From an uncultured Lentisphaeraceae bacterium (lineage in GTDB: Bacteria > Verrucomicrobiota > Kiritimatiellia > RFP12 > UBA1067): 64,000 nt of DNA. Positions 3,797 to 57,185 of this stretch are shown here, piece by piece. Below the pieces are notes generated by a model that made no database searches, was not told the DNA's origin, and saw nothing but the letters and a program-made list of their open reading frames with translations. The position numbers and the translations under genes were made by a program. The first letter of the stretch is position 1, and each line of letters starts with the position of its first letter. The stretch is taken from contig CAYLRN010000001.1 of assembly GCA_964386385.1 (NCBI GenBank), positions 172,706 to 236,705 of the forward strand. Direction: 5' to 3'.

Positions 3797-6700
3797 TCAG
3801 CGGAGGATCAGCAGCGTTCCGACGGCGGTGACGACGGAGATGCGGCCGTTCTCGAAGACGAGCGCGGAGTTCGGCGCAGCGCCAGAGACGGAACACGCAA
3901 GGTCCGCCGCGTCTGGCTCGTCGCCGGAGTACGCGAAGAGCGGGAATTTGGGCGGCAGCTTCACCGGACGGTCTGCCATCTGCACGACCGCGCCCTTCTC
4001 GGACTTGAACTTCGCAAGCGGGACGGGAGCGGACTGGCTGAAGCTCGCGCGCAGGACGCCGCCGCTCTGCAGCCACAGTTCGTCCAGCGCCTCCGGCGTC
4101 GCAGCCACCATGTCGAAGACGCCGCCGGCCGCGACGCCGAGCGTTCCGCGCACGGAACCGGCCACCGCCAGGCGCTGCCCGGCGGCCAGCGCGAAGGGCC
4201 GGTTCGTCGTCGTCGGCAGCACGAGGCTCGCGCCCGCCGCCACAGTGACGTTCGTCGCGGCGAGGCCGCACGCGCCCGAATCGCTCGCATGGGGGAACTG
4301 CGAGGGCGTCAGGATGCCGTACTTCGCAACCCAGGCGTCGGTCAGAGCCTTTACGGCCGCGTCGTCGATGAAGGAATCGTAGAGGCGCACCGCGGCGATC
4401 TCCCCCTTGTAGTTGAAGTCGCAGTTGCCGCTGCCGACAAGAACGCGCATTGCCTCGCGCGGCGTTCCGCCGGATCCGGCCGCCAAGAGGCGCATATGCG
4501 TGAAAACGCCGTCCACGACGATGCGCATGAGGCCGGTGTCAGTGTCGAAGGAGCAGACGGCGCAGTGAGGCTGGCCGTCGGCGAGGTCCCAGACGCGGCT
4601 GACAGTGGACTGGTCGCCGCGCGTAGACACGTTCTTTCCGCCGTAGCCGGCCATGACGCGGTTGCCCTCGCCCCAGAGACCCAGTCCCCAGTCCGCCCGG
4701 TTGCTGGTGGGAAGTTCCGCGCCGACCATAACTGACGACGCGAAGAAGTTGCGGTTCATGGTCACGGAATCAGGCATGTTTCCGTTCGTCGACGTGCGGA
4801 ATACGACCGCAGCCGTCCAGGCGACCTTGCCGGAGGCTGGCGAATCGCCGGCGGGGATGCCGAGGGAGGTGTTGTTTCCGTTGAAATAGACGGAGTTGTG
4901 TCCGTTGATCGCGCCCTTGCGCAGAACGGGTCCCTTCCAGGTGGAGGCGTAGGACGTGGCCGACAGGTCGCTTGTTCCCGTGATGCGCGTGACGTTCGCC
5001 TTGTTCGCCGTGCGCGTTCCATCCGTCGAAAGCCATTCCGTCACCTCCGCACCGTCGGCGACGTCGACGATCGAATCGGCGTCCCACGCGGCGGCGCCGT
5101 CGTCCGGAATTGCCGCGGGGACTTTCTCCCCCATCGGCGGAACGTCGCCCTGCGCCGAATCGTCATCCAGCTCTCCAACCGCGTAGACGCTCGCAGGCGC
5201 GCCGTACTTCCCGGCGAGTTCCACGCCGACGGCGGCCTTTTCGCTCCATGTCAGAGTCCTGCCGGGATAGAAGCGGATCTCGGCCAGCGCGCCCGTGAAC
5301 GCGAACTTGTACGGGGCGTCGGCGTCGGCAATGTTCTGGACGCCGAAGTAGATGTCCGCCGCGTTGCGCGGGCTGCGCGTCGTCTCGTCGAGGTCGACGG
5401 CCCTCTCGACGGTCTCGCCGTCGACGGAGAGCGTGAGCGTCCCGTCGCCGGCCATGGCGTAGATGGCAACGTGCGGCCGGCCGTCGGCGTAGCTGCGAGC
5501 CTTCGTGTAGACGCTGTAGTCCTTGTTGAGCTTGGCGACGCCGAAGCCGGCGCCGACATGTCCGTTCGCGCCGAAGACAAGCCCCCAGTCGTTCACGCAG
5601 CCCGGCTGTTCGCGTCCGAGAATGCCGGTCTCCATATACCACGAGTTGTCCCAGCCCAGGCCGGGCGTCGCAGTCTTGAAGACGACTGCCAGCGTCCAGT
5701 TGGTCTGCCCTGCGAGCGGATTTTCCTCCGCCACGACCTTGAGCGCGGAGTGGTCGAACACGACGCCCGGCCGGCCGTTGAACTCGTCGAGAGAGGCCTT
5801 GGGAACTGTCGTCGGATTCGACGAAAACGTCGGAACCACGGCAGTGCGCGAGGCAGTGGAGTCCGGCCATGCGACGACGTCGTCCCCGTCGGCAAGAGCC
5901 GCGACGGCGTCCTCCGCGCGCCAGGCTACGCATCCGGCGGCAGTCGCGGAAGAGGAGGAGGACATTGGCGCGCCCAGTATCTTGACCGTCCCCTCGTCGA
6001 CGGCGAGTTCGCCCGTGAACGCCGAGGCGTCCCCGAGGACGAGCGTGCCGGCCCCCTTCTTCGTGAGGACGCCGCATCCCTTGAGCGGGGCGCGCATGGC
6101 GAATCGGCGGTCCCGCGTGTCGACTGTCGCAGAGGCTCCGGAAGGGACGATCGTGTCGAGTTCGCTGAACGAGTCGGCCGTAGCCGCGAGCGTTCCGCCG
6201 CGCAGTTCGACGCGATACCAGGAGTCGGTCGTCGCGCCCGAGTTCCACCGCCCTTCAGTGGCCGAGAATCCGCGCGAACCGATTTCGAAGAGGCCGCCGG
6301 AGAGCGTGAACGTGCAGTAGCTGTTCGTGACGGGAATCTGGCGGTCGGCCCCGAACGTCGTCGCTCCGCCCAGCGCGACGCGCGGGACGCGCACGGCGCC
6401 GCCCGACTGGCGGTATGCGGCGGAGGGGGAGTTCACGACCGTTCCGTTGTCGCGCCTTGAGAACGCGAGGATCAGTCCGTCGTCGCCCGGCTGGCTGGAA
6501 GAGGTTTCGTCGACGGCAAGCGTTCCGCCCTTCACCGTGAAGTCGTGGGAGACGAGCTGGTGGCCGCCGCGGTCGCCCATCCAGAGCGTCCCCAGATTCG
6601 CCGTGCCGCCGTCCAGGACGAACTTCGGGTTGGCGTACCAGGTAGAAGAGCCGTTGCCCATGTAGAACGTCGTAGCGTCGAAGCGTCCGCCCGTCAGTTC

Positions 6701-7552
6701 GTAGAGCGAGTCGTACTTGCTGAAGCCGACCTGCGCCAGGACCGCCTTGACGTGTCCGCCGGACTGGCGGAACTCGCCGGAGTCGACGACGAAGACGCCG
6801 TTTGTGAAGACCGCGCCGTCGCCAAAGACCACCTTCGGCGCGCCCGGCTGCGTGAGAAGCAGATAGCTGCCTCCGCCACCCATGTTGACGACGACGCCGG
6901 GGAAGACGTCCTTCCAGTCCGCCTTGTCGGTGAACGTCAGTTCGAGCCGGGCGCTTCCGCTCCAGCGAAAGTCCTGCGCCCAGACGCCAGGTTTCGCCAG
7001 GCGCGCGACATTGTGTCCGCCGGACGCGAAGCGGTAGCCGAGCGTCCCCGCATAGGCCGGCGGCGCATTGTGGCAGGCCAGCACGGCGTTGGAGACTACG
7101 AGTTCGGAATTGCCGCCGATGGCGGCGTTGAAAAAGACCTTTGCCAGTCCGAAATCCCATGTCTGGTCCGCGGCCGTCGCCAGGCGGACGCTGAACGTGA
7201 GGTTGGAATCCGCCCCTGCGGCATGGCGGGCCGTCAGGCCGTCCGCGCCCAGGGCCAGCGTCGTCGTCGCGCCGGCCGCCGCGTTCGTGCCGACGACGAC
7301 GGCGCCGTTGGGGACGTTCGTGAGGACGAGGCCGCCTAACGCGAGGCTGGCGGAATTCGTCAGGGCAGCCATTCCCGGCCGCGCCGCGAAGTCGACCCAC
7401 GCGACGTCGTCCTCCCCCGGCAGGACACCGCCCGCCCAGTTCGCCGCGACGGCCATGTCCGCCGATTCCGCGCCGGAGAACCTTACGACCTCGCCCCGCG
7501 CCATCGCGAGAGCAAGCCCCATTGCGACTGCACAATACGCCGCCTTGACCAT
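3797..7552 (-). CDS. Giant secreted protein of about 1252 aa. It has multiple LamG/concanavalin-A-like lectin domains and an autotransporter-associated beta-strand (PATR) repeat.
   Basis: Start ATG at 7552 is preceded by AAGGAGG. Signal peptide is MVKAAYCAVAMGLALAMA. GTLVLGDASAFTGELAVDEGTVKILG matches the PATR repeat. LamG-like signatures include TLTLSVDGETVERAV and GEIAAVRLYDSFIDDAAV. The ORF-track start at 7945 is an upstream read-through. Confidence 0.75.
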   Translation of the reverse strand: MVKAAYCAVAMGLALAMARGEVVRFSGAESADMAVAANWAGGVLPGEDDVAWVDFAARPGMAALTNSASLALGGLVLTNVPNGAVVVGTNAAAGATTTLALGADGLTARHAAGADSNLTFSVRLATAADQTWDFGLAKVFFNAAIGGNSELVVSNAVLACHNAPPAYAGTLGYRFASGGHNVARLAKPGVWAQDFRWSGSARLELTFTDKADWKDVFPGVVVNMGGGGSYLLLTQPGAPKVVFGDGAVFTNGVFVVDSGEFRQSGGHVKAVLAQVGFSKYDSLYELTGGRFDATTFYMGNGSSTWYANPKFVLDGGTANLGTLWMGDRGGHQLVSHDFTVKGGTLAVDETSSSQPGDDGLILAFSRRDNGTVVNSPSAAYRQSGGAVRVPRVALGGATTFGADRQIPVTNSYCTFTLSGGLFEIGSRGFSATEGRWNSGATTDSWYRVELRGGTLAATADSFSELDTIVPSGASATVDTRDRRFAMRAPLKGCGVLTKKGAGTLVLGDASAFTGELAVDEGTVKILGAPMSSSSSATAAGCVAWRAEDAVAALADGDDVVAWPDSTASRTAVVPTFSSNPTTVPKASLDEFNGRPGVVFDHSALKVVAEENPLAGQTNWTLAVVFKTATPGLGWDNSWYMETGILGREQPGCVNDWGLVFGANGHVGAGFGVAKLNKDYSVYTKARSYADGRPHVAIYAMAGDGTLTLSVDGETVERAVDLDETTRSPRNAADIYFGVQNIADADAPYKFAFTGALAEIRFYPGRTLTWSEKAAVGVELAGKYGAPASVYAVGELDDDSAQGDVPPMGEKVPAAIPDDGAAAWDADSIVDVADGAEVTEWLSTDGTRTANKANVTRITGTSDLSATSYASTWKGPVLRKGAINGHNSVYFNGNNTSLGIPAGDSPASGKVAWTAAVVFRTSTNGNMPDSVTMNRNFFASSVMVGAELPTSNRADWGLGLWGEGNRVMAGYGGKNVSTRGDQSTVSRVWDLADGQPHCAVCSFDTDTGLMRIVVDGVFTHMRLLAAGSGGTPREAMRVLVGSGNCDFNYKGEIAAVRLYDSFIDDAAVKALTDAWVAKYGILTPSQFPHASDSGACGLAATNVTVAAGASLVLPTTTNRPFALAAGQRLAVAGSVRGTLGVAAGGVFDMVAATPEALDELWLQSGGVLRASFSQSAPVPLAKFKSEKGAVVQMADRPVKLPPKFPLFAYSGDEPDAADLACSVSGAAPNSALVFENGRISVVTAVGTLLILR

Positions 7553-7625
7553 TTCAAGCCTCCTTGCCAGAGAATGCCACCCGCCGCGCTTGGCGGAAAC
7601 TGCAGAGTCCGAATGCATATGAAGC

Positions 7626-7653
7626 ATTATATCCGTTTTTTTTTTCTCGTCAA
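7626..7653 (-). promoter_or_regulatory. Sigma70-like promoter TTGACG-16 nt-TATAAT for the giant LamG gene. The spacer consists mostly of a homopolymeric A10 (T10 on the plus strand) tract.
   Basis: Minus strand reads cgcaaTTGACGagaaaaaaaaaacggaTATAATgc. The promoter lies between the activase stop (7678) and the LamG gene start (7552). Confidence 0.5.
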
Positions 7654-7677
7654 TTGCGTTCGCCATAAATGGGCGAT

Positions 7678-8526
7678 TTATGGGAGTCGGACGGCGACTT
7701 TCTTCGGCGGCATGACGTCGGGGAGACCGAGGGCCAGGTACTTCGCCCGCGCGTAGTCGTTGTACTCCAGCTCCACGCGAGCGTCCTTTGCGATGCCCAT
7801 CCCGTCGAGGTCGCGATGGCGCGCGGCAAGGTCTGCGCCGTCCGTCAGATTGGGAACGACGAGCAGGCGGACTTCCATTTTCGCCTTCGCCGCGACGAGC
7901 CGGGCGAGATTGCGCAGAATGAGCTCGTTTGATACGCCTGTGCATCGGCGATGGAGATCAGCGCCGTGCGCCTTGTAGTCGGGAAGCCACATGTCCGTCA
8001 CTGGAAGCATCGCCTCGATTGCGGCTGGCGGCGCGTGAAGCGACGTGTCCAGGCAGGTCCGCAATCCCGCCGCGCGGAAGCGCGCGAAGAGCTCCGCCGC
8101 CCATTCCCAGAAGAAGAGCGGTTCGCCGCCGGAGAGAGTGACGCCGCCGCCCGTCCGCTCGTAGAACGGCCTGTCTTCAAGCGCCAGCTCGACGATGCGC
8201 TCCATTGTCATCGGCTTCCCGTAGAACTTCAGCGCACCGGTCGGACACGTCGCCTCGTCGTTCGTGCAGACCTTGTGTCGAACGCACTTGTGCCGGAAGC
8301 GCGCCAACTGCGGCTTCGGGTCGATCGACTCCGGGTTGTGGCACCACAGGCATTTCAGCGGACACCCCTTGACGAAGAACGTCGTCCTCATCCCCGGGCC
8401 GTCCCATATTGCCATCCGCTTCACGTCGAGAAGCAGCGGCGTACGCAGCGGACGGCCGGCAGCGAACGCCGGCGCCAGAGCACATGACGCAACGCCTGCC
8501 AGGAATCCCTTGCGAGTCGTCTTCAT
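7678..8526 (-). CDS. Glycyl-radical-enzyme activating protein (radical SAM, PflA-like), 283 aa. It has an N-terminal Tat/Sec-like hydrophobic extension.
   Basis: CPLKCLWCHNPESI (CX3CX2C), WDGPGMRTTFFVKGC, and a ferredoxin-like Cys cluster CVRHKVCTNDEATC. Start ATG at 8526 overlaps the upstream GRE stop (ATGA). The N-terminus reads MKTTRKGFLAGVASCALAPAFAAG. Confidence 0.8.
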   Translation of the reverse strand: MKTTRKGFLAGVASCALAPAFAAGRPLRTPLLLDVKRMAIWDGPGMRTTFFVKGCPLKCLWCHNPESIDPKPQLARFRHKCVRHKVCTNDEATCPTGALKFYGKPMTMERIVELALEDRPFYERTGGGVTLSGGEPLFFWEWAAELFARFRAAGLRTCLDTSLHAPPAAIEAMLPVTDMWLPDYKAHGADLHRRCTGVSNELILRNLARLVAAKAKMEVRLLVVPNLTDGADLAARHRDLDGMGIAKDARVELEYNDYARAKYLALGLPDVMPPKKVAVRLP

Positions 8527-11393
8527 TGCGCGATTCCCTCCGCGCGCCGGATGTAGGCCTCCTGCTCCTTTCGCGGCATGTCGTTCCAGCGGACGTTCCA
8601 GCCGCACACGCGCACCTGCAGGTTCTCGTATTTTTCGGGCCGCCGCTGGGCGTCGCGCAGCGTCTCCACGTCCACGACGTTGAAATGGATCGCGCATCCG
8701 CCGTTCGCGAAATACGTCTGCACCAGCGCCTTCATCGCGTCAAGCCCCTTATCGCCTCCCACGGCGTACGGGAGAAGCATGACGTCGAGCGGGAAGTCGC
8801 CCGGCAGGTCGCGGGCGTCGAGGTGGGCGACGGATAGCAGAAGCGCCGTAACGCCCTCCGTGTCGGCGCCCATCGTGGGGGAGACGTTCTTGCTCATCTC
8901 CTCGCCGGCGCGGCGTCCGTCCGGCGTCGCGCCCGTGGCGCGGCCAAGGTCGATGAACTGCTTCGCGCAGTGTCCGCTCGCCTCGAACGCGCCGTTGCGC
9001 GAATTCGGGACGCCGTTCAGGCATTTAGCGTAGGCCTTGACGATTTCGTCGGCGAGATGGTTCGCCTCCGCGTCGTTGTTTCCCCACTTGCGCTTCGAGC
9101 GCTGCATCCTGAGGCGGAGGTCTTCACGCCCTTCCCAGTTCTTCGCCATCAGCGCGCCGAGTTCGGCAAGCGACATCTCACGGCGCTCGTAGACGATTTC
9201 CTCCACGGCGAGCAGCGCGTCGACCGCGGTGCCGAGGCCGGTCTGGAGGACGGAGGAGAAGTTGCCGCGCCGAGTGCCGTCGACGAATGCGTCCTTCCCG
9301 GTCATGACGCTGTATTCCGTGGCAAGCGAGAAGAGAAGGGACGGGTTGACTTCGGCAAGAGTCCTCTCCCACTCGAACGCGAGATTGCGGCTCTCGACGG
9401 TCGTCTCCGCAAGCCGCGCCAGGTAGGCCCGCCTGAACGCCGCGAAATCGGCGGCGGCGAAAGTCCCGTCCTTCGCGCGATCGAGCAGTTCCTCGACGAC
9501 CTTCAGCAGATTGACGTGGGAGATGCCGGTGCCGTTGTAGCCGTCCCTGAGGCCGAACTCGTAGCAGCCGGCGACGACCATCGCGCGGCAGTCCTCGTCA
9601 GTGCAGTCGCGTATCTTGCCCTTCAGCACGCGCGCCATCGGCTCTTCGCCGCAGAAGACGAGCGAACGGTGTCGGCGCGCCATGTCGAGGGCCTTACGCC
9701 AGACCCAGTCGGGGGTGGAGGCCGCCATCTTGAGCTGGACTTTCGGCGTCGGCAGGGCGAGTTCGTCGTGCACTTCAAGGAGAATGCGCGAGACCTCGTT
9801 GTACGCGCTCGTGCCGTCGGCGTTCGTGCCGCCGAAATAGACGGGCTGCCCCCAGTAGTTGTCGATCGACCCCCACTGCCACCAGAAGTGGCGGAGCTGT
9901 TCGCGGAACTCCGCCTCGGTCGTCCGCCCCGCCGCGATGTCTGCGCGGTAGTAGGGCGTAAGGAGGCGGTCGAGGTTGCCGAGGGAGCGGACCTGGAAGC
10001 TGTCGAAGTTCTCGCTCATCACCCAGTCGAGATAGATGAAGAGCAGGACGTCATAGGCCGTCCGCGGCGCGCCCGCGCGCAGGCGGCGCAGGGAATCGCG
10101 CTCCTTCTCGAGGCGGGAGACGCGCCGCGCATGAACCGCGCCGGGCGGGTCCGCCGCCTCGCTCCGCAGGGCAGCCAGACGACGCTCCGACTGGACGACG
10201 AGGCGGTCCAGATGGCGAAGGACGGCGTCTGCGGCCATGAGACGGCTTTCGTAGTAGGCGTTTCCGTCCTTCCAGTTCGCCAGCAGACGTTCCCGGAGGC
10301 CGGGGAAGCCGAGCGGCAGAATAGCGTCCCAGTCGGGGACGGAATGGTCGTAGTCCTTCCACATGTTCCAGCGTCCGGCCTTGCGCCCGGCATGGATCTT
10401 CGCCGGCACGTCCGGACACGTCCGGGCGTCCACCTCCCCGCTGCGCTGTCCCATGATGGAATTGAGAGGATGCCCGAACCTGTGCTTCGTCCAAAGCGCG
10501 TAGGCGGGAAACCAGTCAAGGGGCGAGACGTCTATCGCCGCGCGGTCGCAGCAGAACGCGAAGAGCTTAGCCTTTACGACGCTCCACGGCATTCTGCCCT
10601 TGCTCTCCTCCGCAAGCCTTGAGAGCGCCCCGCGCATCTCCTCGCGCTCAAGGCCGGTGGCGGGGTCTGCGACAGGGGTCCGCCACTTGAAGCGAAGGTA
10701 GTCCGCCTCGTTCGCGAACGGCGCGATCGTCCGTTCCTCGTACGGGGTCAGGACGACGTTGCGCAGACGTATCGCCACCCGTCCCTGCGGATAGGGCTGC
10801 GTCTGGAAGCCGATGCGTCCCGCGCGCGGAACTGTCACGAAGCAGCGGCTCACCTCCACTCCGTCCCACGAACACGCGACATCTCCCTCGACGCTGCGGA
10901 CGGCGAGGCGATGCCAGGCGCCGGGCGTCCGTCGCGCCGCTACGGCGCGGGGGATGCGATGGTAGCCGACTCCCGACATCGGACCCGACTGCGGCGTGGC
11001 GCCGACCATCAGCCCCGGCCATCCCCACAGGTCGCCGATGTCCGTCGTCTTCAACTGGAATTCAAGACCCGACGCCTGGTCGCCGTCGCCGACAAGAACG
11101 GCCAGCCCTCCGTCGCCGAACGAATCGTCGGCGTACTGTATTTCGGCCGTGAGCTTGAAATCGCGCCAGCGTTCCCTCGTCGTCAGGACGAGCGGCCTGG
11201 CGCCGTTCATGGTCAGGACGCCGTCCGCCAGGCTGAACGTCTCCGCGACGTCGGCGGCGGACTTCGCCATCGGGCAGTCGAAGTCCGCCAGCGTCCGCCC
11301 GGCGAACAGATCCACCGGCGGAAGCGCGGTCGGCGCGGCAAGTCCCGTCCATGCGGCAAGGACCCCGGCGGCGATGGCCATTTCAAGTTTCAT
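8523..11393 (-). CDS. Fusion protein of 956 aa: signal peptide + DUF1080 (3-keto-disaccharide-hydrolase-like/LamG-like) module + glycyl-radical-enzyme (PFL-family) fold.
   Basis: RBS AAGGAGG precedes the ATG at 11393. N-terminus is MKLEMAIAAGVLAAWTGLAAP. DUF1080 signature ...DFKLTAEIQYADD...GRIGFQTQPYPQGRVAIRLRNVVL. C-terminus QVRVCGWNVRWNDMPRKEQEAYIRRAEGIAQ parallels the PFL glycine-radical motif RVSGYAVRFNSLTKEQQ. AGCYEFG is the candidate thiyl-Cys loop. Confidence 0.75.
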   Translation of the reverse strand: MKLEMAIAAGVLAAWTGLAAPTALPPVDLFAGRTLADFDCPMAKSAADVAETFSLADGVLTMNGARPLVLTTRERWRDFKLTAEIQYADDSFGDGGLAVLVGDGDQASGLEFQLKTTDIGDLWGWPGLMVGATPQSGPMSGVGYHRIPRAVAARRTPGAWHRLAVRSVEGDVACSWDGVEVSRCFVTVPRAGRIGFQTQPYPQGRVAIRLRNVVLTPYEERTIAPFANEADYLRFKWRTPVADPATGLEREEMRGALSRLAEESKGRMPWSVVKAKLFAFCCDRAAIDVSPLDWFPAYALWTKHRFGHPLNSIMGQRSGEVDARTCPDVPAKIHAGRKAGRWNMWKDYDHSVPDWDAILPLGFPGLRERLLANWKDGNAYYESRLMAADAVLRHLDRLVVQSERRLAALRSEAADPPGAVHARRVSRLEKERDSLRRLRAGAPRTAYDVLLFIYLDWVMSENFDSFQVRSLGNLDRLLTPYYRADIAAGRTTEAEFREQLRHFWWQWGSIDNYWGQPVYFGGTNADGTSAYNEVSRILLEVHDELALPTPKVQLKMAASTPDWVWRKALDMARRHRSLVFCGEEPMARVLKGKIRDCTDEDCRAMVVAGCYEFGLRDGYNGTGISHVNLLKVVEELLDRAKDGTFAAADFAAFRRAYLARLAETTVESRNLAFEWERTLAEVNPSLLFSLATEYSVMTGKDAFVDGTRRGNFSSVLQTGLGTAVDALLAVEEIVYERREMSLAELGALMAKNWEGREDLRLRMQRSKRKWGNNDAEANHLADEIVKAYAKCLNGVPNSRNGAFEASGHCAKQFIDLGRATGATPDGRRAGEEMSKNVSPTMGADTEGVTALLLSVAHLDARDLPGDFPLDVMLLPYAVGGDKGLDAMKALVQTYFANGGCAIHFNVVDVETLRDAQRRPEKYENLQVRVCGWNVRWNDMPRKEQEAYIRRAEGIAQ

Positions 11394-11435: not shown

Positions 11436-14400
11436 TCAGAAAAGGCGGTTGGAGAGGAAGCAGGAGGCGACGACGTGGCCCTTGACGATGAATGTCGAGA
11501 CGGGGATGCGCATTCCGGTGAACTGCTTGAACCCCTGCAGCCACTGCCCCTTCAGCTCCAGTTCGAGGTCGCCCGTCTCGGCGCGGAACGAGACGACGCA
11601 CAGTTCGCGCGGCGAATAGCGGATTCCGGTGCCCAGGGCCTTCGAGACGGCCTCCTTCGCGCACCAGAAGCGGATGATGGCGCTTGGGGTGTCGACGGCG
11701 TTCATCGCCAGATCCTGCTCCTCCGGAAGGAAGACGCCGCGCGCGAATTCGTCGGAAAGATACCGGTCGAAGGCCTCCACGTCCACGCCGACATGGGCGT
11801 TGACCGCGACGGCGGCCATGATGAAGCGGGCGGTGTGGGCGATGGAGAGGTCGAAGTCGACGTCGCTGCGCATGTGGTGCAGCCACGGGCCCGTGACACG
11901 GGGCTTTCCGCTGGGGTCGGAATAGACCTGCACGTCGGCGTCGCTCCAGCGCGCCTGGTAGTATCTGTCCAGAAAGCGGCGGACCGCCTCCTTGGCGGCG
12001 ACGCGGCCGAAGAGCCATTCCGTCCGGCGCGCCACGCTGCCCTTCTCCTCCATCTCCGCGAACTCGTGGCGTTCGGTGCGTCCGAGGACGATGTGCGAGA
12101 GGGTCTTGAGCCAGAGTTCCTCGTTGCGTTCGAACATGGGGTAGTCGACGTCGGTCAGGACGGCGGTGGCCATCGCAAGGCCGGTCGCGCCCATGCGCTC
12201 CTCCGGGAGGGTGTGCGTCAGGTAGGTGCGCGCCGGTTCGAGGAGCATCTTTCGGTATTCGTCCGGCACGCGCTCGGTGTATTCCTCGTAGCCGCGCAGT
12301 TCCATGACAAGGTTTCCGTTGCCGTCGGAGACGAATATGTCGGAGATGAGGGACGTGGGGGTGACGCCGGTGTTGCGCAGATAGCAGTGCAGGCGGCGTC
12401 CGACGGGATGGGCGAGCGAGTGGAGGGAGAGGCCGCGGATGCGGAACGCATATGAAATCGCCCCGTGGAAGCGCTCGTGGCTGCGCCAGAGCTGGAAGCC
12501 GTCCGTGATCGCGGCCATGAGCTGCGGGTTGAGCACCCAGACCGGGACGGTCGTGTGGGACACCGCCCTGTCCGATTCTGGCACCTCAACTTCGTAGTCG
12601 AGCCCCGCCTCGCTCCATCGGTCCGCGCGGCGGATGCACTGCAGAAGCGAACCGGAGAAGAGCATGTCGGGATAGATGTCGCTCGTCTCCCAGTGGACGT
12701 CCCTCGGCGTAGTGCCGTGCTCCGGCGGCGTGAACGCCTCCGGCGGAAGGGGACCTTCGGAAAGGAGGAACGTCCCCTCCATCGCAGGCCACGTCCAGGC
12801 GGAACCGGGCGTGTCCTCGCGCACCTGGACGCGCACGGCGACGCGCGCGGAGGCGGAAGCCGCGACGCGCTCGGCCCGGACGAAGAGGCGGAGGCGGCCG
12901 TTCCTGAATGCGGCCATGCGCCGGCGCTGCAGGTCGTTCACCGCGACGACGTGGAGGCCCGGCGCCAGCTGCTGGGCGAGCTCTGCCATGATCTCCGCCG
13001 CGCCGACGAGCGTCAGCGCCGTAAACCCGCGAAGCGGCTCAAGCCCGGAGTCGGCGTGGTCGGGATGCGAGAGCTGCGACGTCCCGAGGGCGAAGTCGGC
13101 GAGGATCGGCTCCGCCTTGAGGTCGAACGTCTTCACCATCTCGATCGATATGCCCTGCTGGTGGGAGACGACGTCCATGTCTGAAATTAGCGGACACACG
13201 GCGCCGAAGCCGAACTGCTGTTCGCGGCGCCGCGCCTGGGCGGCGATGACGGCCGCGCGCACCGCGGCCCGGCTGCGGCGGTCCGACGCGCCGCCCATGG
13301 AGGGCGCAAGCGCGGAGACGGCCTGCGGCGGCGGGACGTCCACCGTCAGGGCGAGGCAGGGGAACTCGCGCGAAAGCGGCATCTCCGCCTCCATCCTGAC
13401 GTTGAGCGAGAGGGGCGACGAGAAGTCCAGAAGCCGGCATCTGCGCTGGCGGAAGAGAAGCGAGGGGTCGACGGCGGCGCCAAGGGCGGCGAGCTGGCCT
13501 ACGACGTGCATCAGCTGGACGAGGCCCACGCGGTGGATGGAGTCCGCCGCCATCACGACGCGCTCCTCTCCGCGCAGGACCTCGTCGGCAAGGCCGCAGC
13601 ACGTCCCGCGCGGGCCGACCTCCAGGAAGACGCGATAGCCGTCGGCGTACATTCTGCGAATCGTGTCCGCGAACATGACGGGCCGCACCCATTCCTCCGC
13701 CGCCTCGTCGCGCGCCTTGCGGACGCGGGGGTGGAGCGGTTCGGCGCGGCCGCACGAATAGACGGGGAACTGCGGCTTTTCGTCTATCCAGTTGGACGCG
13801 AACTTGCGCAGGAGCGGAAGCACCCCACGGCAGCCCGGCGTGTTGAACGGCCTGTCCACGGAAAGGCGGCGGACGCGCGCCCCGGCGGCGGAAAGGCGCT
13901 TCACGACGTCGGCGGCGCATTCCGGCGCGGCGGCGATTGTCATGTGGCGCGGGGAGAGGCGATACGCCACGCCGACCTTGTCAGGCGGGAACTCGCCCAA
14001 CGCGCGTTCCGTTTCGCCGGGGCTTGCAGAGACGACGGAGGCGAGGACGCACTTCGGAAGCCCCGAATGCCCCACCGCCGTGTTCACCACCTTGTACGTC
14101 TCCTGCAGGAATTTGAGCCGGTGCTTGCGCTCGAACTTCCCGAACATCCCGCTTGCGGCGAGGGCGCTCAAATCGCCTCCGGAAAAGCCCGTCGCCCCTT
14201 CCGGCACGATTCCGAGCGCGCGGAAGAGGCGCGTCAGCGCCATGTTGGCGGAATACGTGGAGACGACGGCCTCGGCGTAGCCGCCGGCCGCGAAGACGTC
14301 CGCGTCCCCGCGGTAGTACGGCGCCGGCGGGAATACGAACGACGACGGCTGGAAGGGGCCTGCGCCCTTCAGCGCGGCCTCGAGCTCGTCGAAGGGAAGA

Positions 14401-14819
14401 CGGCACTCGCGGAAGCGCACGGTGACGTCGCGAAGCATGTCGGGATAGAACGACATTGCGCCGGGATAGATGAACGCCAGCTTCCCGTCCGCGCCCTCGC
14501 CGAGGACGTGCCTGGAGAAGAAGTACGTCCCCGACTTGTCGCGCAGACGCTCCGTCTTCGCGTCGGCGATCCGCGCCGCGGCGGAGACGAGGCGGCCGCG
14601 CAGTTCCGGGACGTCGGAGACGACGAGCGCCAGAACCGCGGCCTTCTCGCCGTCAGCGAACCGGCGGGCGCACGTGTACGCGACGTCGCGCAGCTCCACG
14701 CCCGTGATCTGGTCGATGAACGACACAAGGCCGTTCACCTCGGACACAAGCCCATCCCTGTCCGCCGCGCCGAGCAGGACAAGTTCGCTTCCAAACCATT
14801 CGCTCAGGTCCGCGCTCAT
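11436..14819 (-). CDS. Multidomain PKS/FAS-like protein of 1127 aa: KS-AT-type linker + acyltransferase + dehydratase (hot-dog) + Sfp-type 4'-phosphopantetheinyl transferase. No carrier-protein domain was seen.
   Basis: AT: LAFIYPGAMSFYPDM, GFSGGDLSALAASGMF, FLEVGPRGT. DH: LSHPDHADSGLEPL...GAAEIMAE. PPTase: SGKPRVTG...FDLSIAHT, GVDVE, FWCAKEAVSKALGTG. The start overlaps the KS-like stop (ATGA). Confidence 0.7.
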   Translation of the reverse strand: MSADLSEWFGSELVLLGAADRDGLVSEVNGLVSFIDQITGVELRDVAYTCARRFADGEKAAVLALVVSDVPELRGRLVSAAARIADAKTERLRDKSGTYFFSRHVLGEGADGKLAFIYPGAMSFYPDMLRDVTVRFRECRLPFDELEAALKGAGPFQPSSFVFPPAPYYRGDADVFAAGGYAEAVVSTYSANMALTRLFRALGIVPEGATGFSGGDLSALAASGMFGKFERKHRLKFLQETYKVVNTAVGHSGLPKCVLASVVSASPGETERALGEFPPDKVGVAYRLSPRHMTIAAAPECAADVVKRLSAAGARVRRLSVDRPFNTPGCRGVLPLLRKFASNWIDEKPQFPVYSCGRAEPLHPRVRKARDEAAEEWVRPVMFADTIRRMYADGYRVFLEVGPRGTCCGLADEVLRGEERVVMAADSIHRVGLVQLMHVVGQLAALGAAVDPSLLFRQRRCRLLDFSSPLSLNVRMEAEMPLSREFPCLALTVDVPPPQAVSALAPSMGGASDRRSRAAVRAAVIAAQARRREQQFGFGAVCPLISDMDVVSHQQGISIEMVKTFDLKAEPILADFALGTSQLSHPDHADSGLEPLRGFTALTLVGAAEIMAELAQQLAPGLHVVAVNDLQRRRMAAFRNGRLRLFVRAERVAASASARVAVRVQVREDTPGSAWTWPAMEGTFLLSEGPLPPEAFTPPEHGTTPRDVHWETSDIYPDMLFSGSLLQCIRRADRWSEAGLDYEVEVPESDRAVSHTTVPVWVLNPQLMAAITDGFQLWRSHERFHGAISYAFRIRGLSLHSLAHPVGRRLHCYLRNTGVTPTSLISDIFVSDGNGNLVMELRGYEEYTERVPDEYRKMLLEPARTYLTHTLPEERMGATGLAMATAVLTDVDYPMFERNEELWLKTLSHIVLGRTERHEFAEMEEKGSVARRTEWLFGRVAAKEAVRRFLDRYYQARWSDADVQVYSDPSGKPRVTGPWLHHMRSDVDFDLSIAHTARFIMAAVAVNAHVGVDVEAFDRYLSDEFARGVFLPEEQDLAMNAVDTPSAIIRFWCAKEAVSKALGTGIRYSPRELCVVSFRAETGDLELELKGQWLQGFKQFTGMRIPVSTFIVKGHVVASCFLSNRLF

Positions 14820-16270
14820 CGCCGTTCCTCGCCTTCTGGTTCCTCCTCAAGCACCACCGCCGCCTTTCGTCCGCCCAGGTCGGAGACAAGCACGACCGCG
14901 CGGCGCGGCGACGACGGGTCGCCCGTGATCCACGGCCGCGGCTCGTTCAGCAGGTACACCGACGAGTTCGCGCTGGAGAGCTGCGCAAGCGGCGTCGCCA
15001 CCGGCATCTGCGGCGGAAGGATACGCCGGCGCAGGGCGATCGCCGCCTTGAGCAGTCCCGCCGCCGCCTCGGCGCGGAAGCAGTGCCCCACGTTCCCTTT
15101 CACGGAGCCGATGCCGACGAGCGGCCCGCCGGGGCGGTGCTCGCCCCAGACGGACTGCACCGCCTCCACTTCCGCGGCGTCCATTTCGGGGATACCGCAC
15201 CCTTCCGCCTCGACGAGCCCGATCGAGTGGAGCGGCGCCGCCGCGCGCTCCGCCGCATCCGCCAGCACGTCGGCGGCGGAGAGCTCCCCGCAGGAGACAG
15301 ACCTGACGAGCGCGTATATGCGGTCGTTCGCGGCAAGCGCGTCCGACTCGCGCTTCAGGACGAAGAACGCGCCGCCCTCGCCGGGAATCGTGCCGTGGGC
15401 GGACCGGTCGAAGGGAGTCAGTTCGGAGTCCTTGGAGAAAAGAACTTCGCCGGAGACGCCCTGAAGGAAGGCTCTGCTGAGCGGCGGCGTCAGGGCCCCG
15501 GCCAGCGCGACGTCCGCCCGGCCGCTGCGAAGGTCGTCCATCGCGCCGCGCAGCGACGCGACGCCGCTGAGAAAGCCGCCGTCTATCGTCGTCGCCCCGC
15601 CGGAAAAGGAGCATTCGTGCGCTATCCACGAGGCTATCCTGTGCCCTGAACCGGAAAGGAAGCTGGCGGCGTTCGCCTCCGGGAGGGAGGAAAGCAGCTT
15701 CTGCCTTATGTTCTCGAACGATTCCTGCGGGGCGTTGCGGAAGAACCTGCCGATGATCTCCATCGTCTGGTCGATGAAGAACGTGTGGTCGAGCCAGTTG
15801 ACCGTGGAGGCGTTGAAAGGCGGCGCGTAGCCGAAGCGCACCGTGCCGCGGTGCAGTTCGCGCCCATGCGGACGCATCCCCGCATCGACAAGCGCGTCGA
15901 ACGCCAGCTGGACGGCGAAGTAGAGATCCTGGTTTTCGCCCTTGTTTATCTGGCGCGGGAAGTTCTGGTCGCCGGGGACGCAGGCGTAGAGCCGCCCGAG
16001 CGTCCCGCCGTGCGTCGGATACGGGCGGTTGAAGAGGTTCTTCGCGCCCGGCAGCAGCGCGGTGTCGAACCCAAGCGGCGCGATGCCGCTCTTCTGGTGC
16101 ATTATCTGCCGCCAGAAGACGCCCGGGTCCGCCGCCTGCGCGAAACGGCATGACACGCCCACGATTGCTATTGGAATGCTTTGCACGCCACCAGTATAGC
16201 AAAAACGACCGCCGTGTTGTAGACACCGGCAATGGACAACAGGCGGCACGTTGTTGTACAATAGCCGCAT
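14816..16270 (-). CDS. Beta-ketoacyl-synthase-like protein with the active-site Cys replaced by Phe (KS0/chain-length-factor-like). The likely true start is the GTG at 16186.
   Basis: IAIVGVSCRFAQAADPGVFW resembles a PKS KS N-terminus. TIDGGFLSGV aligns to the TVDTACSSSL consensus, so C becomes F. GHCFRAEAAAGL keeps the His motif. Minus strand has TGcTATACT 6 nt upstream of GTG 16186. Confidence 0.65.
   Translation of the reverse strand: MRLLYNNVPPVVHCRCLQHGGRFCYTGGVQSIPIAIVGVSCRFAQAADPGVFWRQIMHQKSGIAPLGFDTALLPGAKNLFNRPYPTHGGTLGRLYACVPGDQNFPRQINKGENQDLYFAVQLAFDALVDAGMRPHGRELHRGTVRFGYAPPFNASTVNWLDHTFFIDQTMEIIGRFFRNAPQESFENIRQKLLSSLPEANAASFLSGSGHRIASWIAHECSFSGGATTIDGGFLSGVASLRGAMDDLRSGRADVALAGALTPPLSRAFLQGVSGEVLFSKDSELTPFDRSAHGTIPGEGGAFFVLKRESDALAANDRIYALVRSVSCGELSAADVLADAAERAAAPLHSIGLVEAEGCGIPEMDAAEVEAVQSVWGEHRPGGPLVGIGSVKGNVGHCFRAEAAAGLLKAAIALRRRILPPQMPVATPLAQLSSANSSVYLLNEPRPWITGDPSSPRRAVVLVSDLGGRKAAVVLEEEPEGEERR
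16186..16205 (-). promoter_or_regulatory. Extended -10 (TGcTATACT) immediately upstream of GTG 16186. This is a leaderless-type start for the KS-like gene.
   Basis: Minus strand reads ttTGcTATACTggtggcGTGcaaagcattccaatagca, which translates VQSIPIAIVG. Confidence 0.35.
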
Positions 16271-16282
16271 TCAAGGAGAACC

Positions 16283-16897
16283 ATGGCAACTCTAAAACTC
16301 GGAATACTCGGTTCGGGCTCGGGCTCGAACATGCAGTCGATCGTAGACGCGATCGAGGCGAAGAGCCTCGACGCCGAAATCAGGCTCGTCCTCGCCGACG
16401 TCCCGGACGCGAAGATACTCGAACGCGGACGGAGGCACGGCATGCCGTCCATGTACCTCGACTGCGCCCCGTGGAAGACGAAACTCGAAGGCCAGGCGGA
16501 AGATCGCTGTATCGACCTCCTGAGGGGGCACGGCTGCGACACCGTCGTCCTCGCCGGATTCATGCGCATCGTCAAGCCGAAACTCCTGGCGGCGTTCCCC
16601 ATGCGCGTCCTTAACGTCCACCCCGCCCTTCTCCCCGCGTTCCCGGGCGTCCACAGCTGGACGCAGGCGCTCGACTACGGATGCAAGGTGGCGGGCGTAA
16701 CCGTCCATTTCGTCGACGCCGGCACCGACTCGGGCCCGATAATCGTGCAGAAGGCCGTGCCCGTCCTTGAAGACGACACGCCGGAGACGCTCCACGCGCG
16801 AATCCAGGAGCAGGAGCATCTCGCGTTCCCGGAGGCCCTGCGCCTTCTGGCGGCCGGCCGCCTTTCCGTGGAGGGGCGCCGCGTCCGGATCAAATAG
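16283..16897 (+). CDS. purN: Phosphoribosylglycinamide formyltransferase.
   Basis: MATLKLGILGSGSGSNMQSIVDAI...NVHPALLPAFPG...VHFVDAGTDSGPII. The RBS is caaggagaacc. Confidence 0.9.
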   Translation: MATLKLGILGSGSGSNMQSIVDAIEAKSLDAEIRLVLADVPDAKILERGRRHGMPSMYLDCAPWKTKLEGQAEDRCIDLLRGHGCDTVVLAGFMRIVKPKLLAAFPMRVLNVHPALLPAFPGVHSWTQALDYGCKVAGVTVHFVDAGTDSGPIIVQKAVPVLEDDTPETLHARIQEQEHLAFPEALRLLAAGRLSVEGRRVRIK

Positions 16898-16951
16898 CCG
16901 TCCGCGCATCCGTGTTCCACAAGACAGGAAACTGAAGAAGAAGGAAGAACC

Positions 16952-18733
16952 ATGAACGGTGCAACGCTGCTGCTCATCGCCACTGCGTGTTTTCTCGTCG
17001 GCTACTTCATCTACTCGAAATTCGTCGGGCGGCTGCTCGGCGTAGACCCGTCGCGGCCTACGCCCGCCGTCTCGATGAACGACGGGGTGGACTACGTGCC
17101 GGCGCATCCCACGGTGCTGTTCGGACACCACTTCGCGGCAATCGCCGGCGCTGGGCCGATCGTCGGCCCCGTCCTCGCCGCCGAGTTCGGCTGGGCGAGC
17201 GTCGCGCTGTGGGTCGTCCTGGGATGCATATTCATAGGCGCCGCGCACGACATGATCTCGCTCTTCCTCTCCGTCCGCCACAAGGGCGAGTCGATCGGCA
17301 GCGTGATCGGCGACATCCTCGGCCGCCCCGGCCGCATCCTGTTCCTCCTCTTCAGCTGGTCCGCGCTCGTCCTCGTCGTCGCCGAGTTCACGCGGCAGAT
17401 CTCCGTGACGTTCGTACAGGACCCGTCCATCGCCTCCGCCTCCCTTCTCTTCATCGGAGAGGCAGTCCTCTTCGGCGTATGCGTGTACCGCCTGAAGATG
17501 AACGTCCTCGTCGCCTCGCTGATATTCGTCCCGGTCATGTTCGGCTTCGTCTGGCTTGGCGGCGTGATCCCGATCGACCTCATGAAGTGCCATGGCTTCA
17601 CTGCGGCGGAGTACTGCAGAGCCCTCGCCTCCGGCACACCGGTCCCGGCCGCGATGGCCGCGGCCGCGCAGAGCGCGCAGACGATATGGACGCTCGTACT
17701 CCTCGCCTACTGCTTCCTCGCCTCCACCCTGCCGGTGTGGCTTCTCCTCCAGCCCCGCGACTACCTCAACGCGTATCTCCTCTACGCGATGATGATCCTC
17801 GGCTTCCTCGGCGTCTTCGTAGCCCACCCGACGCTGCAGACGGACGCCTTCACCGGCCTTTCAGCAATCGGACGCTCCGGCAACCTGGAATACCTCTTCC
17901 CGTTCCTGTTCGTGACAGTCGCCTGCGGCGCCTGCTCCGGCTTCCATGCGCTCGTCGCGAGCGGAACGAGCGCGAAGCAGCTGGACAGCGAAAGGAGCAT
18001 CCGCCCAGTCGCCTACGGCGGAATGCTGCTTGAGGGCGTCCTCGCCGTGATCGCGCTCGTGGGCGTGGCGGGGTCGTTCGCAAGCCAGGCGGAATACGTG
18101 AAAACCCTCCAGGTCACGGAGCCGGTGAACGTGTTCGCATCGACAATCGCCGGCTTCGTCCAGAAGATGGGCTTCCCGGCGGAGACGGCGCGGTCGTTCA
18201 TGCTGCTCTCCGTGTCCGCGTTCCTCATGACGAGCGTCGACGCCGGAACGCGCCTTGCGCGGTTCTCGTGGCAGGAGTTCATCGCCGCCGCGGCGCCGGC
18301 GGAGGAGCGCAAGGAAAAGCCGAGCATCCTCTACCGCGTCTGCCACAACATGTACTTCGGCACGGGCGTCGTCATCGCGCTCGTCTGCGCCCTGCTCCTC
18401 GGCAGCCCGAAGGCGGCGAAGTCGCTCTGGACGATCTTCGCCAGCGCAAACCAGCTGCTCGCGGCCCTGACGCTTCTCACGGCCACGCTCTGGTTCGTCC
18501 GCAGCAAGAAGCCGTGCTGGATCACGCTCGTTCCGACGTGCTTCATGATGACCGTCAGCACGTACGCGCTCATATCCCTCTTCCGCGCGTCCATTGCCGG
18601 CGGGAACTGGACTGTCGTGGGCGCGACGGGATTCCTGATTCTCGTGGCGATCGCGCTGATCCTCTTCTCGCTCTCGTACGTCTACACGCACTTCGCGCCC
18701 GCCGCGAAGAAAGACGCAAACGGCGTCCGGTGA
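16952..18733 (+). CDS. cstA: Carbon starvation protein A family peptide/pyruvate transporter.
   Basis: A 593-aa polytopic membrane protein with CstA N-terminal signature ...VPAHPTVLFGHHFAAIAGAGPIVGPVLAAEFGW... Confidence 0.9.
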   Translation: MNGATLLLIATACFLVGYFIYSKFVGRLLGVDPSRPTPAVSMNDGVDYVPAHPTVLFGHHFAAIAGAGPIVGPVLAAEFGWASVALWVVLGCIFIGAAHDMISLFLSVRHKGESIGSVIGDILGRPGRILFLLFSWSALVLVVAEFTRQISVTFVQDPSIASASLLFIGEAVLFGVCVYRLKMNVLVASLIFVPVMFGFVWLGGVIPIDLMKCHGFTAAEYCRALASGTPVPAAMAAAAQSAQTIWTLVLLAYCFLASTLPVWLLLQPRDYLNAYLLYAMMILGFLGVFVAHPTLQTDAFTGLSAIGRSGNLEYLFPFLFVTVACGACSGFHALVASGTSAKQLDSERSIRPVAYGGMLLEGVLAVIALVGVAGSFASQAEYVKTLQVTEPVNVFASTIAGFVQKMGFPAETARSFMLLSVSAFLMTSVDAGTRLARFSWQEFIAAAAPAEERKEKPSILYRVCHNMYFGTGVVIALVCALLLGSPKAAKSLWTIFASANQLLAALTLLTATLWFVRSKKPCWITLVPTCFMMTVSTYALISLFRASIAGGNWTVVGATGFLILVAIALILFSLSYVYTHFAPAAKKDANGVR

Positions 18734-36443: not shown

Positions 36444-36615
36444 TTTATCAAATCCACTCCGCTTGTGCAACCTTGCAACGTCTTGGAGGCTTCCCGTTTT
36501 TTCACGGCCGGCAAGTCCATCTCGCGGCAACTCCCCGTTTCCGGCTTTCAGGGAGAGACAACCGCCCGCGGATTCAATGAAGCCCGTGGGTGATGGCGGC
36601 GCGGAAAATGAAGAG

Positions 36616-36660
36616 GGGCAGAACCACCGCATTTATATGAATGCGGTGGTTCTGCCGTTC
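36616..36660. terminator. Perfect 16-17 bp inverted repeat GGCAGAACCACCGCATT-tatatg-AATGCGGTGGTTCTGCC. It is a candidate terminator for the convergent/upstream LamG gene or a regulatory hairpin for the GreA-like gene.
   Basis: The palindrome is read directly from the sequence. It lies about 115 nt downstream of the LamG gene stop (36773) and about 170 nt upstream of the GreA-like start. TATGAATGCGG is directly repeated nearby. Confidence 0.35.
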
Positions 36661-39958: not shown

Positions 39959-40039
39959 TGGCGCTGGCCGCTTTTATTTCGTCCGCCGGCGAAATAGGCA
40001 GCGGATTTCCGCGCCCATGTTGACGCGGGGAAAACGGCG

Positions 40040-40058
40040 TGGTAGAATGGTCTGCATG
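40040..40058 (+). promoter_or_regulatory. Extended -10 TGgTAGAAT located 7 nt upstream of the ATG at 40056 (leaderless-type start).
   Basis: Sequence reads cgTGgTAGAATggtctgcATGaatcgg. No RBS is present. Confidence 0.4.
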
Positions 40059-56232: not shown

Positions 56233-56276
56233 TCTACCAAAAAGAGGGCGAGTAGTGAACTGGTGAATTGCCGGCC

Positions 56277-57074: not shown

Positions 57075-57165
57075 GTCGGTCCTTTCATGTGCGATGTCGA
57101 TTCATATGCGATGCAGATGTGCCGCACATTCTACCACGTTTCGGCGCGGCATAGAATCCGCCGAA

Positions 57166-57185
57166 TGTGCTATAATGGCGCCATG
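57166..57185 (+). promoter_or_regulatory. Extended -10 TGcTATAAT located 6 nt upstream of the ATG at 57183 (leaderless-type start).
   Basis: Sequence reads gaaTGTGcTATAATggcgccATGagacag. The same layout occurs at the paralogue (40040-40058). Confidence 0.4.

Follow-up and report, generated by a model that had tools for sequence, protein, structure and literature searches.

A putative trans-acting phosphopantetheinyl transferase carried by a polyketide synthase-like gene pair with degenerate active sites in an uncultured Kiritimatiellia bacterium

The gene pair and its start sites

The stretch of DNA analysed here, 64,000 nucleotides of contig CAYLRN010000001.1 from an uncultured Lentisphaeraceae bacterium and referred to as the window, holds two overlapping minus-strand open reading frames (ORFs), 16270..14816 and 14819..11436, that resemble parts of a polyketide synthase (PKS). 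The first codes for a ketosynthase (KS)-like protein of 484 aa. The second codes for a protein of 1127 aa in which a linker of the kind that joins KS to acyltransferase (AT), an AT fold, a double hot-dog dehydratase (DH) fold and an Sfp-type phosphopantetheinyl transferase (PPTase) follow one another in this order. We show that the KS-, AT- and DH-like domains have kept their folds and lost their catalytic residues and that the motifs of the PPTase are invariant throughout the family, and we propose that the PPTase would be the sole remaining enzyme of the pair. The two ORFs overlap by ATGA and therefore the two genes are probably translationally coupled.

The true start of the KS-like ORF is probably the GTG at 16186, which gives a protein of 456 aa, and not the ATG at 16270. 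This is argued by the length of the homologues, which are mostly 452-467 aa long, by the disorder of residues 1-28 in the AlphaFold2 (AF2) model, and by the position of the ATG only 12 bp from the start of the divergent purN gene, where it overlaps a promoter-like site of purN. The coordinates of the features are collected in Table 1. A 511-aa ORF listed at 16292-17827 on the minus strand is an antisense artefact of purN and cstA with a low-complexity translation rich in E, D, R and G, and it does not count as an upstream neighbour of the KS-like ORF.

Table 1. Features of the gene pair and of the region upstream of it (window coordinates)
Feature	Position	Strand	Basis or remark
KS-like pseudoenzyme gene	14816..16270	-	Pfam, PDB alignments, AF2, Foldseek, family columns; 484 aa as listed
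KS-like key codon, Phe233	15572-15574	-	
KS-like key codon, Glu356	15203-15205	-	
KS-like key codon, His396	15083-15085	-	
KS-AT linker and AT-like pseudo-domain (residues 1-460 of the 1127-aa protein)	13440..14819	-	Pfam, NCBIfam, PDB alignments, AF2, Foldseek; GQ motif lost (Ala121)
AT-like key codon, Ser213	14181-14183	-	
AT-like key codon, Asn326	13842-13844	-	
Post-AT linker (residues 461-545)	13185..13439	-	AF2 pLDDT; no Pfam match at E<=10
Double hot-dog DH-like pseudo-domain (residues 546-865)	12225..13184	-	Weak Pfam match, AF2, Foldseek, columns
DH-like key codon, Phe576	13092-13094	-	
DH-like key codon, Ala769	12513-12515	-	
Sfp-type PPTase domain (residues 880-1127) and stop codon	11436..12182	-	Pfam, NCBIfam, invariant motifs
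Divergent promoter region, probable, between KS-like gene and purN	16187..16282	.	Sigma-70-like site 16233-16262 on + strand
purN	16283..16897	+	Pfam/NCBIfam assignment

Three domains have kept their folds and lost their catalytic residues

The KS-like protein matches the N-terminal and C-terminal KS domains of Pfam (PF00109, 4.7e-23; PF02801, 1.4e-19). Its AF2 model, which like that of the larger protein was built on the family alignment, has a predicted local distance difference test score (pLDDT) of 85 and a predicted TM-score (pTM) of 0.86, and Foldseek aligned it to type I PKS ketosynthases with a TMq of 0.77; by all three lines of evidence it is a thiolase-fold KS domain. A fresh residue-level alignment with solved PKS ketosynthases placed Phe233 at the position of the nucleophilic Cys (TIDGGFLSGV versus VDTACSASL), as had been stated in the original prediction, which was made by a model from the sequence of the window. 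That prediction had also taken the His motif of the KS as kept, and this is true only of the second catalytic His, His396 in GNVGH396C. The first, in HGTGT, has been replaced by Glu356 (EAEGCG), a loss that had been overlooked, and His396 is the sole survivor of the Cys-His-His triad that a condensing ketosynthase has. Among the 121 homologues on which all family column statistics are based, the Cys column holds 11 residue types (A, V, I, M, S, T, N, L, F, G and P) and never Cys, and in 109/121 Asp occupies the column of the first His. The ORFs scanned in the window include no other KS, in agreement with the earlier statement that the operon has no condensing KS. The likening of the Cys-less protein to a chain length factor (CLF) or to the Gln-containing KSQ does not hold, because the position of the Cys is occupied by Phe and not Gln, the first His is lost, no partner KS is present in the 64 kb, and of the two halves of a PfaC-type KS-CLF protein (6riw) the KS half is matched with 85 bits and the CLF half with 27 bits. 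On these last scores a CLF identity of the protein was rejected.

In the 1127-aa protein Pfam recognised an AT domain (PF00698, 1.4e-10), an ACPS/PPTase domain (PF01648, 7.5e-14) and, below the cut-off, a PS-DH domain (PF14765, 5.8e-4), so that with the KS matches the hidden Markov models that had been suggested for checking the domains all gave a match, that of PS-DH being weak. The start of the protein corresponds to the KS-AT linker region of the PfaA and type I PKS models of NCBIfam. The AF2 model (pLDDT 86, pTM 0.55) divides into linker and AT (residues 1-460), a disordered stretch after the AT (471-515, pLDDT <50) followed by one long helix (516-538), the double hot-dog (549-860) and the PPTase (880-1127). 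Approximately 900-950 columns of the protein were aligned by Foldseek to KS-AT-DH megasynthases, and these alignments cover the AT and DH of CalA3, MAS and fatty acid synthase (FAS).

The AT fold with its KS-AT linker is supported by PF00698, by the AF2 model and by Foldseek matches to KS-AT didomains and AT domains, and Ser213 is present in GFSGG when aligned to solved structures. Thus the linker, the fold and the GFSGGD motif described earlier stand. As an active AT the domain does not stand, because out of the Ser of GHSxG, the dyad His and the GQGSQ motif Ser213 alone is present: the dyad His has been replaced by Asn326 (RPFNTP versus xAFHS/YHTP), which is found in 121/121 homologues, and GQGSQ has become PGAMS. 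Even the Ser is not a family trait, its column being Ala in 74, Val in 26, Ser in 20 and Leu in 1 homologue (Ala or Val in 100/121). The nucleophile columns, with 11 residue types for the KS Cys and these four for the AT Ser, behave like positions that have no chemical role.

The hot-dog fold claimed for the DH was also found, both in the strands and helices of the AF2 model at residues 549-860 and by Foldseek. The motif that had been quoted for it, HPDHADSGLEP, sits in a lineage-specific insertion that is present in only 14/121 homologues. Alignment with intact relatives places Phe576 in the column of the catalytic His (LADFALG versus LxDHTLG) and Ala769 in that of the catalytic Asp (DxxxQ), so that neither the His of HxxxGxxxxP nor the Asp of DxxxQ/H is there.

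The C-terminal phosphopantetheinyl transferase

With NCBIfam the C-terminal region resolves into two AcpS-like halves, which is the Sfp-type arrangement, and it matches TIGR00556 (pantethn_trn), TIGR00516 (acpS, in two stretches) and HetI. It carries GKP (971-973), His995, GVDVE (1011-1015) and WCAKEAVSKALGTG (1052-1065), that is, the GKP, (S/A)H, GxDxE and W/FxxKEAxxK motifs by which Sfp-type enzymes are recognised. The motifs had been correctly quoted in the original prediction, and GKP, His995, GVDVE and WCAKEAVSKALGTG are invariant in 121/121 homologues. The D/E/K/E residues are likewise kept in all of the 88 loci on which the locus statistics of the degenerate clade are based. From this conservation the domain is predicted to be catalytically active. 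No stand-alone AcpS was seen in the locus DNA that was searched, where every match lay inside a fusion protein, but this sample is too small to speak for whole genomes.

Searches for a carrier protein and reductases

At Pfam E<=10 no PP-binding domain was detected in the whole 1127-aa protein or in its linker region at residues 440-560, and therefore the large protein does not hide an acyl carrier protein (ACP) domain, which would have spoken against the first description of the pair. The AcpP of E. coli and three or four ACPs of intact relatives served as phmmer queries, and with them we found no ACP-like ORF in the six frames of the window and none within 10 kb at the 88 related degenerate loci. 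Thus the pair does not have, in cis or in its operon, the carrier of a complete PKS or FAS module. No reductase is encoded in the operon or by the ORFs scanned in the window, and across the 88 loci no gene for a ketoreductase (KR), enoyl reductase (ER), thioesterase (TE) or ACP co-occurs with the pair. The reported lack of both an ACP and a reductase is borne out by these searches. It had been suggested that the carrier is encoded elsewhere. This holds only in a limited way: an intact PPTase does need such a carrier, but canonical extension, loading and dehydration are beyond the module itself. Because the module's own ACP is gone, the PPTase would have to act in trans.

Spread and conservation of the family

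For each of the two proteins hundreds of full-length homologues were found, with identities of 50-98% to the large protein and 57-99% to the KS-like protein. The few that carry a name in their source are called 'PPTase superfamily protein' or 'polyketide synthase' and come from metagenome-assembled genomes (MAGs) of Kiritimatiellia. In a scan with one genome per GTDB species the pair is carried by at least 133 species-level genomes, nearly all of them uncultured MAGs, many from animal gut or rumen, and mostly labelled Kiritimatiellia, some being labelled otherwise. In most loci the gene for the degenerate KS (KS') lies directly upstream of the PPTase gene. Mean identity to the query is 0.64 for the KS, 0.56 for the AT, 0.54 for the DH and 0.60 for the PPTase; by this measure the dead domains are roughly equal to the PPTase in conservation and are not decaying, which points to comparable purifying selection.

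The loss of catalytic residues in three domains would be expected if the genes were functionless remnants on the way to becoming pseudogenes. We give this practically no credence. Intact full-length ORFs are found in the species-level genomes counted above and also in hundreds of metagenomic clusters, the family identity is 50-64%, and the GC content at third codon positions of the two ORFs (0.84 and 0.89) is as high as in neighbouring genes (GC of the window 64-68%). The AF2 models are confident, and conservation of this extent effectively refutes non-function.

Intact relatives and the course of the decay

Exhaustive searching without a profile gave 9880 matches, 732 of them below 1e-30, each of the 732 representing one 50%-identity cluster. 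Among the best 150, nearly every full-length protein that does not belong to the degenerate clade has an intact AT (GHSxG, YHTP) and the DH His. In some intact relatives the KS is fused at the N-terminus (approximately 1500-2000 aa), and some have an ACP between AT and DH, two of them (P0263 and P0265) at the position of the post-AT linker. No KR was found in the seven intact relatives that were scanned with Pfam. Genomic context was obtained from two loci. L006 (protein P0252) has a KS with Cys-His-His, AT-DH-PPTase, a 97-aa ACP-like gene and a short-chain dehydrogenase/reductase (SDR) gene, and L007 (P0264) has a PKS of 2780 aa, KS-AT-DH-PPTase, an ACP-like gene of 106 aa and SDR genes. Intact relatives carry one KS and lack a CLF. 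The small ACP-like genes follow directly after the intact AT-DH-PPTase, at 7499-7792 of L006 (LGFESVD) and 14055-14375 of L007 (LAFESIDV). There is no precomputed Pfam match on record for their products, which are a divergent carrier family tied to a large uncharacterised superfamily of KS/AT-[ACP]-DH-PPTase proteins.

The KS-like protein of the window is 30-37% identical over its full length to intact ketosynthases, and the break between the two genes coincides exactly with the junction of KS and linker in fused relatives. These findings bear on whether the Cys-less KS could serve, in the manner of a CLF, as partner of an active KS encoded elsewhere, such as FabF, FabB or a PKS ketosynthase. 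A missing Cys with a retained second His superficially resembles a CLF, and PigJ and AmcF are weak NCBIfam matches of the protein. We nevertheless consider such a partnership very unlikely, since the gene is one part of a split KS-linker-AT polypeptide of which fused relatives exist, the inspected intact relatives make do with one KS, the bit scores given above favour the KS half of the PfaC-type protein over the CLF half, and no active KS is encoded among the scanned ORFs of the window.

The 13 degenerate proteins that represent 50%-identity clusters group together in a neighbour-joining tree, as a single clade that has no intact member within it. The catalytic columns over the fetched loci show a mosaic, stepwise decay, in which some members combine a live KS with a dead AT and others a dead KS with a live AT, and none retains the DH His. 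L089 and L090 have an intact KS Cys-His-His and have lost the AT Ser. L077, L078, L080 and L088 have lost the KS Cys and have an intact AT dyad. An intermediate group has lost the KS Cys, with both His kept, and the AT His, and in the crown group, to which the window belongs, KS and AT are both lost. Thus the pair belongs to a monophyletic, stepwise-degenerated clade nested in an uncharacterised superfamily of intact, ACP-bearing synthases.

The complete KS triad in L089 and L090 and the complete AT dyad in L077, L078, L080 and L088 could also be taken as signs of a working, non-canonical lipid or polyketide module in which the pseudo-domains use other residues or only bind intermediates and pass them on, the PPTase primes a carrier encoded elsewhere, for example AcpP, and the outcome is the synthesis or modification of a specialised lipid. 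The strong conservation of the pseudo-domains would fit this, as would that of residues in the old pockets, namely His396, Lys391 and Asn393 of the KS and Arg323, Asn326 and Thr327 of the AT. However, in the crown group including the window all three domains are without nucleophile or base, the hypervariable nucleophile columns make catalysis unlikely, none of the KR, ER, TE and ACP genes sought at the 88 loci accompanies the pair, and its context is one of housekeeping genes that is not conserved as a biosynthetic cluster. Therefore we regard a working module as unlikely.

Proposed function of the gene pair

The neighbours of the pair in the window are purN, cstA, asd, accA/accD, purM, tsaD and recC. 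At related loci they include dxs, dapF, asd, ispH and valS; they vary between genomes and are housekeeping genes. Clustering of ORFs brought out only two recurrent real neighbours, panB (14 loci) and a gene for a KamA-family radical S-adenosylmethionine (SAM) protein (32 loci). In 14 deeper-branching loci of the degenerate clade (a subset of L048-L088) the KS-like gene is immediately preceded, on the same strand, by panB, which codes for ketopantoate hydroxymethyltransferase. PanB belongs to the pantothenate pathway, which leads to coenzyme A (CoA), the donor substrate of a PPTase.

Because of the wide spread among MAGs, the housekeeping context, the linkage to panB and the lack of co-occurring biosynthetic genes, a role in primary metabolism is preferred over one in natural-product synthesis. 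Based on these findings, the reading that we favour, and consider probable, is that the pair codes for a trans-acting and probably housekeeping PPTase on a pseudoenzyme PKS scaffold derived from a PfaA-like module. The two coupled genes would be the split halves (KS and linker-AT-DH-PPTase) of one ancient PfaA-like type I synthase module, whose KS, AT and DH became pseudoenzymes and whose cognate ACP and ketoreductase genes were lost. The Sfp-type PPTase would transfer 4'-phosphopantetheine from CoA to a carrier protein encoded elsewhere, the likeliest target, as the universal candidate, being the AcpP of type II fatty acid synthesis (FAS II), and it may have a housekeeping role as holo-ACP synthase, possibly as the main one. 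The KS'-AT'-DH' body would be kept as a folded scaffold, probably dimerised through the KS, that the PPTase needs. It may provide stability, folding or dimerisation, it may dock the carrier through the former ACP surfaces, or it may sense ligands through the CoA-thioester pockets. Of what had been proposed before, a repurposed scaffold fits best, since the catalytic residues of KS, AT and DH are lost and the folds are conserved like the PPTase.

Some findings weigh against this. The pTM of the large protein leaves its inter-domain arrangement uncertain. An adjacent KS' gene is absent at approximately 7 loci that have room for it upstream, and KS' may be dispensable there or encoded elsewhere. 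Residues near the dead sites are still strongly conserved, namely Asp230, Lys391, Asn393 and His396 in the KS and Gly211, Gly214, Gly215, Asp216, Arg323 and Asn326 in the AT, so that the pseudo-domains may have a non-canonical role in catalysis or ligand binding. Lastly, the role as a housekeeping or sole PPTase is inferred from conservation and gene context only.

The conserved pockets lead to another explanation, in which the AT or KS pocket binds malonyl-CoA, acyl-CoA or acyl-ACP and thereby gates the PPTase, or else sequesters ACP, so that the supply of holo-ACP would be coupled to the acyl-CoA pool. Pocket architecture conserved without catalytic residues, the physical fusion to an intact PPTase that uses CoA, and the linkage to panB all agree with a regulatory or sensor pseudoenzyme of this kind. 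It is purely inferential, though, and structural constraint accounts for the conservation equally well, and we consider it unlikely. The scaffold-borne PPTase that we favour can be taken further, but only tentatively: the essential holo-ACP synthase of gut and rumen Kiritimatiellia might be this fused PPTase and not AcpS, sitting on a dead, dimeric KS'-AT'-DH' platform for docking and acyl-CoA sensing.

The family would offer a natural example of a whole PKS module (KS, AT and DH) that has turned into a pseudoenzyme while under selection, and the series of sublineages in which the active sites of KS, AT and DH disappeared in different orders could show what the body of a megasynthase does beyond catalysis. 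Should the PPTase prove to be the housekeeping holo-ACP synthase, an essential enzyme would have a new architecture here, in a gut phylum about which little is known. There is also a warning for annotation, because these genes, labelled 'polyketide synthase' by pipelines, mark no biosynthetic cluster.

Other genes in the window and at related loci

The KamA-family radical SAM gene (lysine-2,3-aminomutase-like; TIGR00238 above cut-off) lies directly downstream on the same strand at its 32 loci (L002, L003 and L021-L084), where it adjoins the fusion gene or overlaps its 3' end, and it is absent from the window. It was treated as lineage synteny with no evident functional link. In the window the next gene downstream of the PPTase gene codes for a 956-aa glycyl-radical enzyme (GRE; 8523-11393, minus strand) with PFL-like and Gly_radical (RVCGW) domains. 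Between the PPTase gene and the start of the GRE gene lie 42 bp, which hold an AAGGAGG Shine-Dalgarno sequence and lack a terminator. The GRE was rejected as a member of the system because none is found near the pair at the 87 other loci (0/87). Its N-terminal segment resembles a signal peptide, and it further contains a DUF1080/3-keto-disaccharide-hydrolase domain, an odd fusion for a class of oxygen-sensitive cytoplasmic enzymes, and no GRE-activating radical SAM enzyme was found at the ORFs scanned in the window.

Elsewhere in the window, 40017-42080 and 56268-58943, both on the plus strand, are paralogous genes for a Predicted AAA-ATPase with PD-(D/E)XK (PDDEXK_9), the second with an extra N-terminal extension of approximately 300 aa. 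An 800-aa protein (34230-36632, minus strand) has GreA/GreB N- and C-terminal domains only at residues 639-781, preceded by an N-terminal region of approximately 640 aa that has no Pfam match. Two very large secreted-looking proteins are encoded on the minus strand at 3797-7945 and 36773-39847, the former with a PATR autotransporter-type repeat and the latter with Laminin_G_3. The listed start of the former, ATG 7945, looks over-extended, its N-terminus being of low complexity and rich in Arg and Pro.

Comparison with known systems

Single inactive KS, AT or DH domains are common within working assembly lines. In full-text searches of the literature we found no description of a free-standing dead KS/AT/DH module, conserved throughout a bacterial lineage, in which only the PPTase is kept and the carrier is missing, nor of the family itself, and we know of no primary-metabolism enzyme that is built of a fully pseudoenzymatic PKS module. 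The closest likeness is to the intact KS/linker-AT-[ACP]-DH-PPTase relatives, which share with the window pair the domain order, the KS/linker split and the C-terminal Sfp-type PPTase and are 28-33% identical to the large protein over its full length. They differ from it in that they keep the KS Cys-His-His, the AT GHSxG and His and the DH His, none of which is an intact set in the window pair, and in that they come with a carrier, whether an ACP within the protein or a downstream gene for an ACP of 97-106 aa, and with SDR or other PKS genes nearby, of which the pair has none.

A C-terminal Sfp-type PPTase after a DH is also found in the enediyne PKSEs (SgcE, CalE8, DynE8), which are iterative type I PKSs with the order KS-AT-ACP-KR-DH-PPTase. 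These have an ACP and a KR, whereas the window pair has neither and the seven Pfam-scanned intact relatives are also without KR. The 60 best PDB sequence matches, whether of the KS-like protein or of one intact relative, include no structure that is named as a PKSE or can be recognised as one. On these grounds an enediyne PKSE identity was rejected.

KS folds that lack the nucleophilic Cys are known from three systems. KSQ has Gln together with both His, which are needed for decarboxylation, a CLF pairs with an active KS, and KS0 domains sit inside a working trans-AT PKS line. The KS-like protein is similar to these in being a thiolase-fold KS without the nucleophile that is retained as a structural or partner subunit, but the window family differs from them in its hypervariable Cys column, in the Asp or Glu at the first His, in having no active partner, and in that the adjacent AT and DH are dead as well. 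In fungal type I FAS, a fully active enzyme that primes an internal ACP of its own, the alpha-subunit has a C-terminal PPTase beside its KS. It too is a KS-containing megasynthase with a permanently attached PPTase, although the overall architecture is unrelated.

TIGR02813 (PfaA) is the second NCBIfam match of both proteins, and the KS-AT region scores best against this model, yet with 131.8 and 73.8 bits versus a cut-off of 1010, and with neither the ACPs nor the KR of the order KS-MAT-ACPn-KR (MAT, malonyl-CoA:ACP transacylase), the pair is not a PfaA. Among the synthases of polyunsaturated fatty acids and secondary lipids, PPTases fused at the C-terminus of DH-containing Pfa-type proteins have been reported as PfaC-PPTase in Pseudoalteromonas sp. 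DS-12 and as PfaBC-PPTase in Aquimarina, Flavobacterium and Renibacterium (PMC3098273, PMC13291983). Like the window protein, these synthases have the PPTase at the C-terminal end of a Pfa-type multidomain protein with a DH. They are, however, KS-CLF-(AT)-DH2-PPTase proteins encoded in complete pfa clusters that also supply tandem ACPs, KR and ER, and they are presumed to be active, whereas the window pair has no CLF, ACP, KR or ER and its catalytic residues in front of the PPTase are gone.

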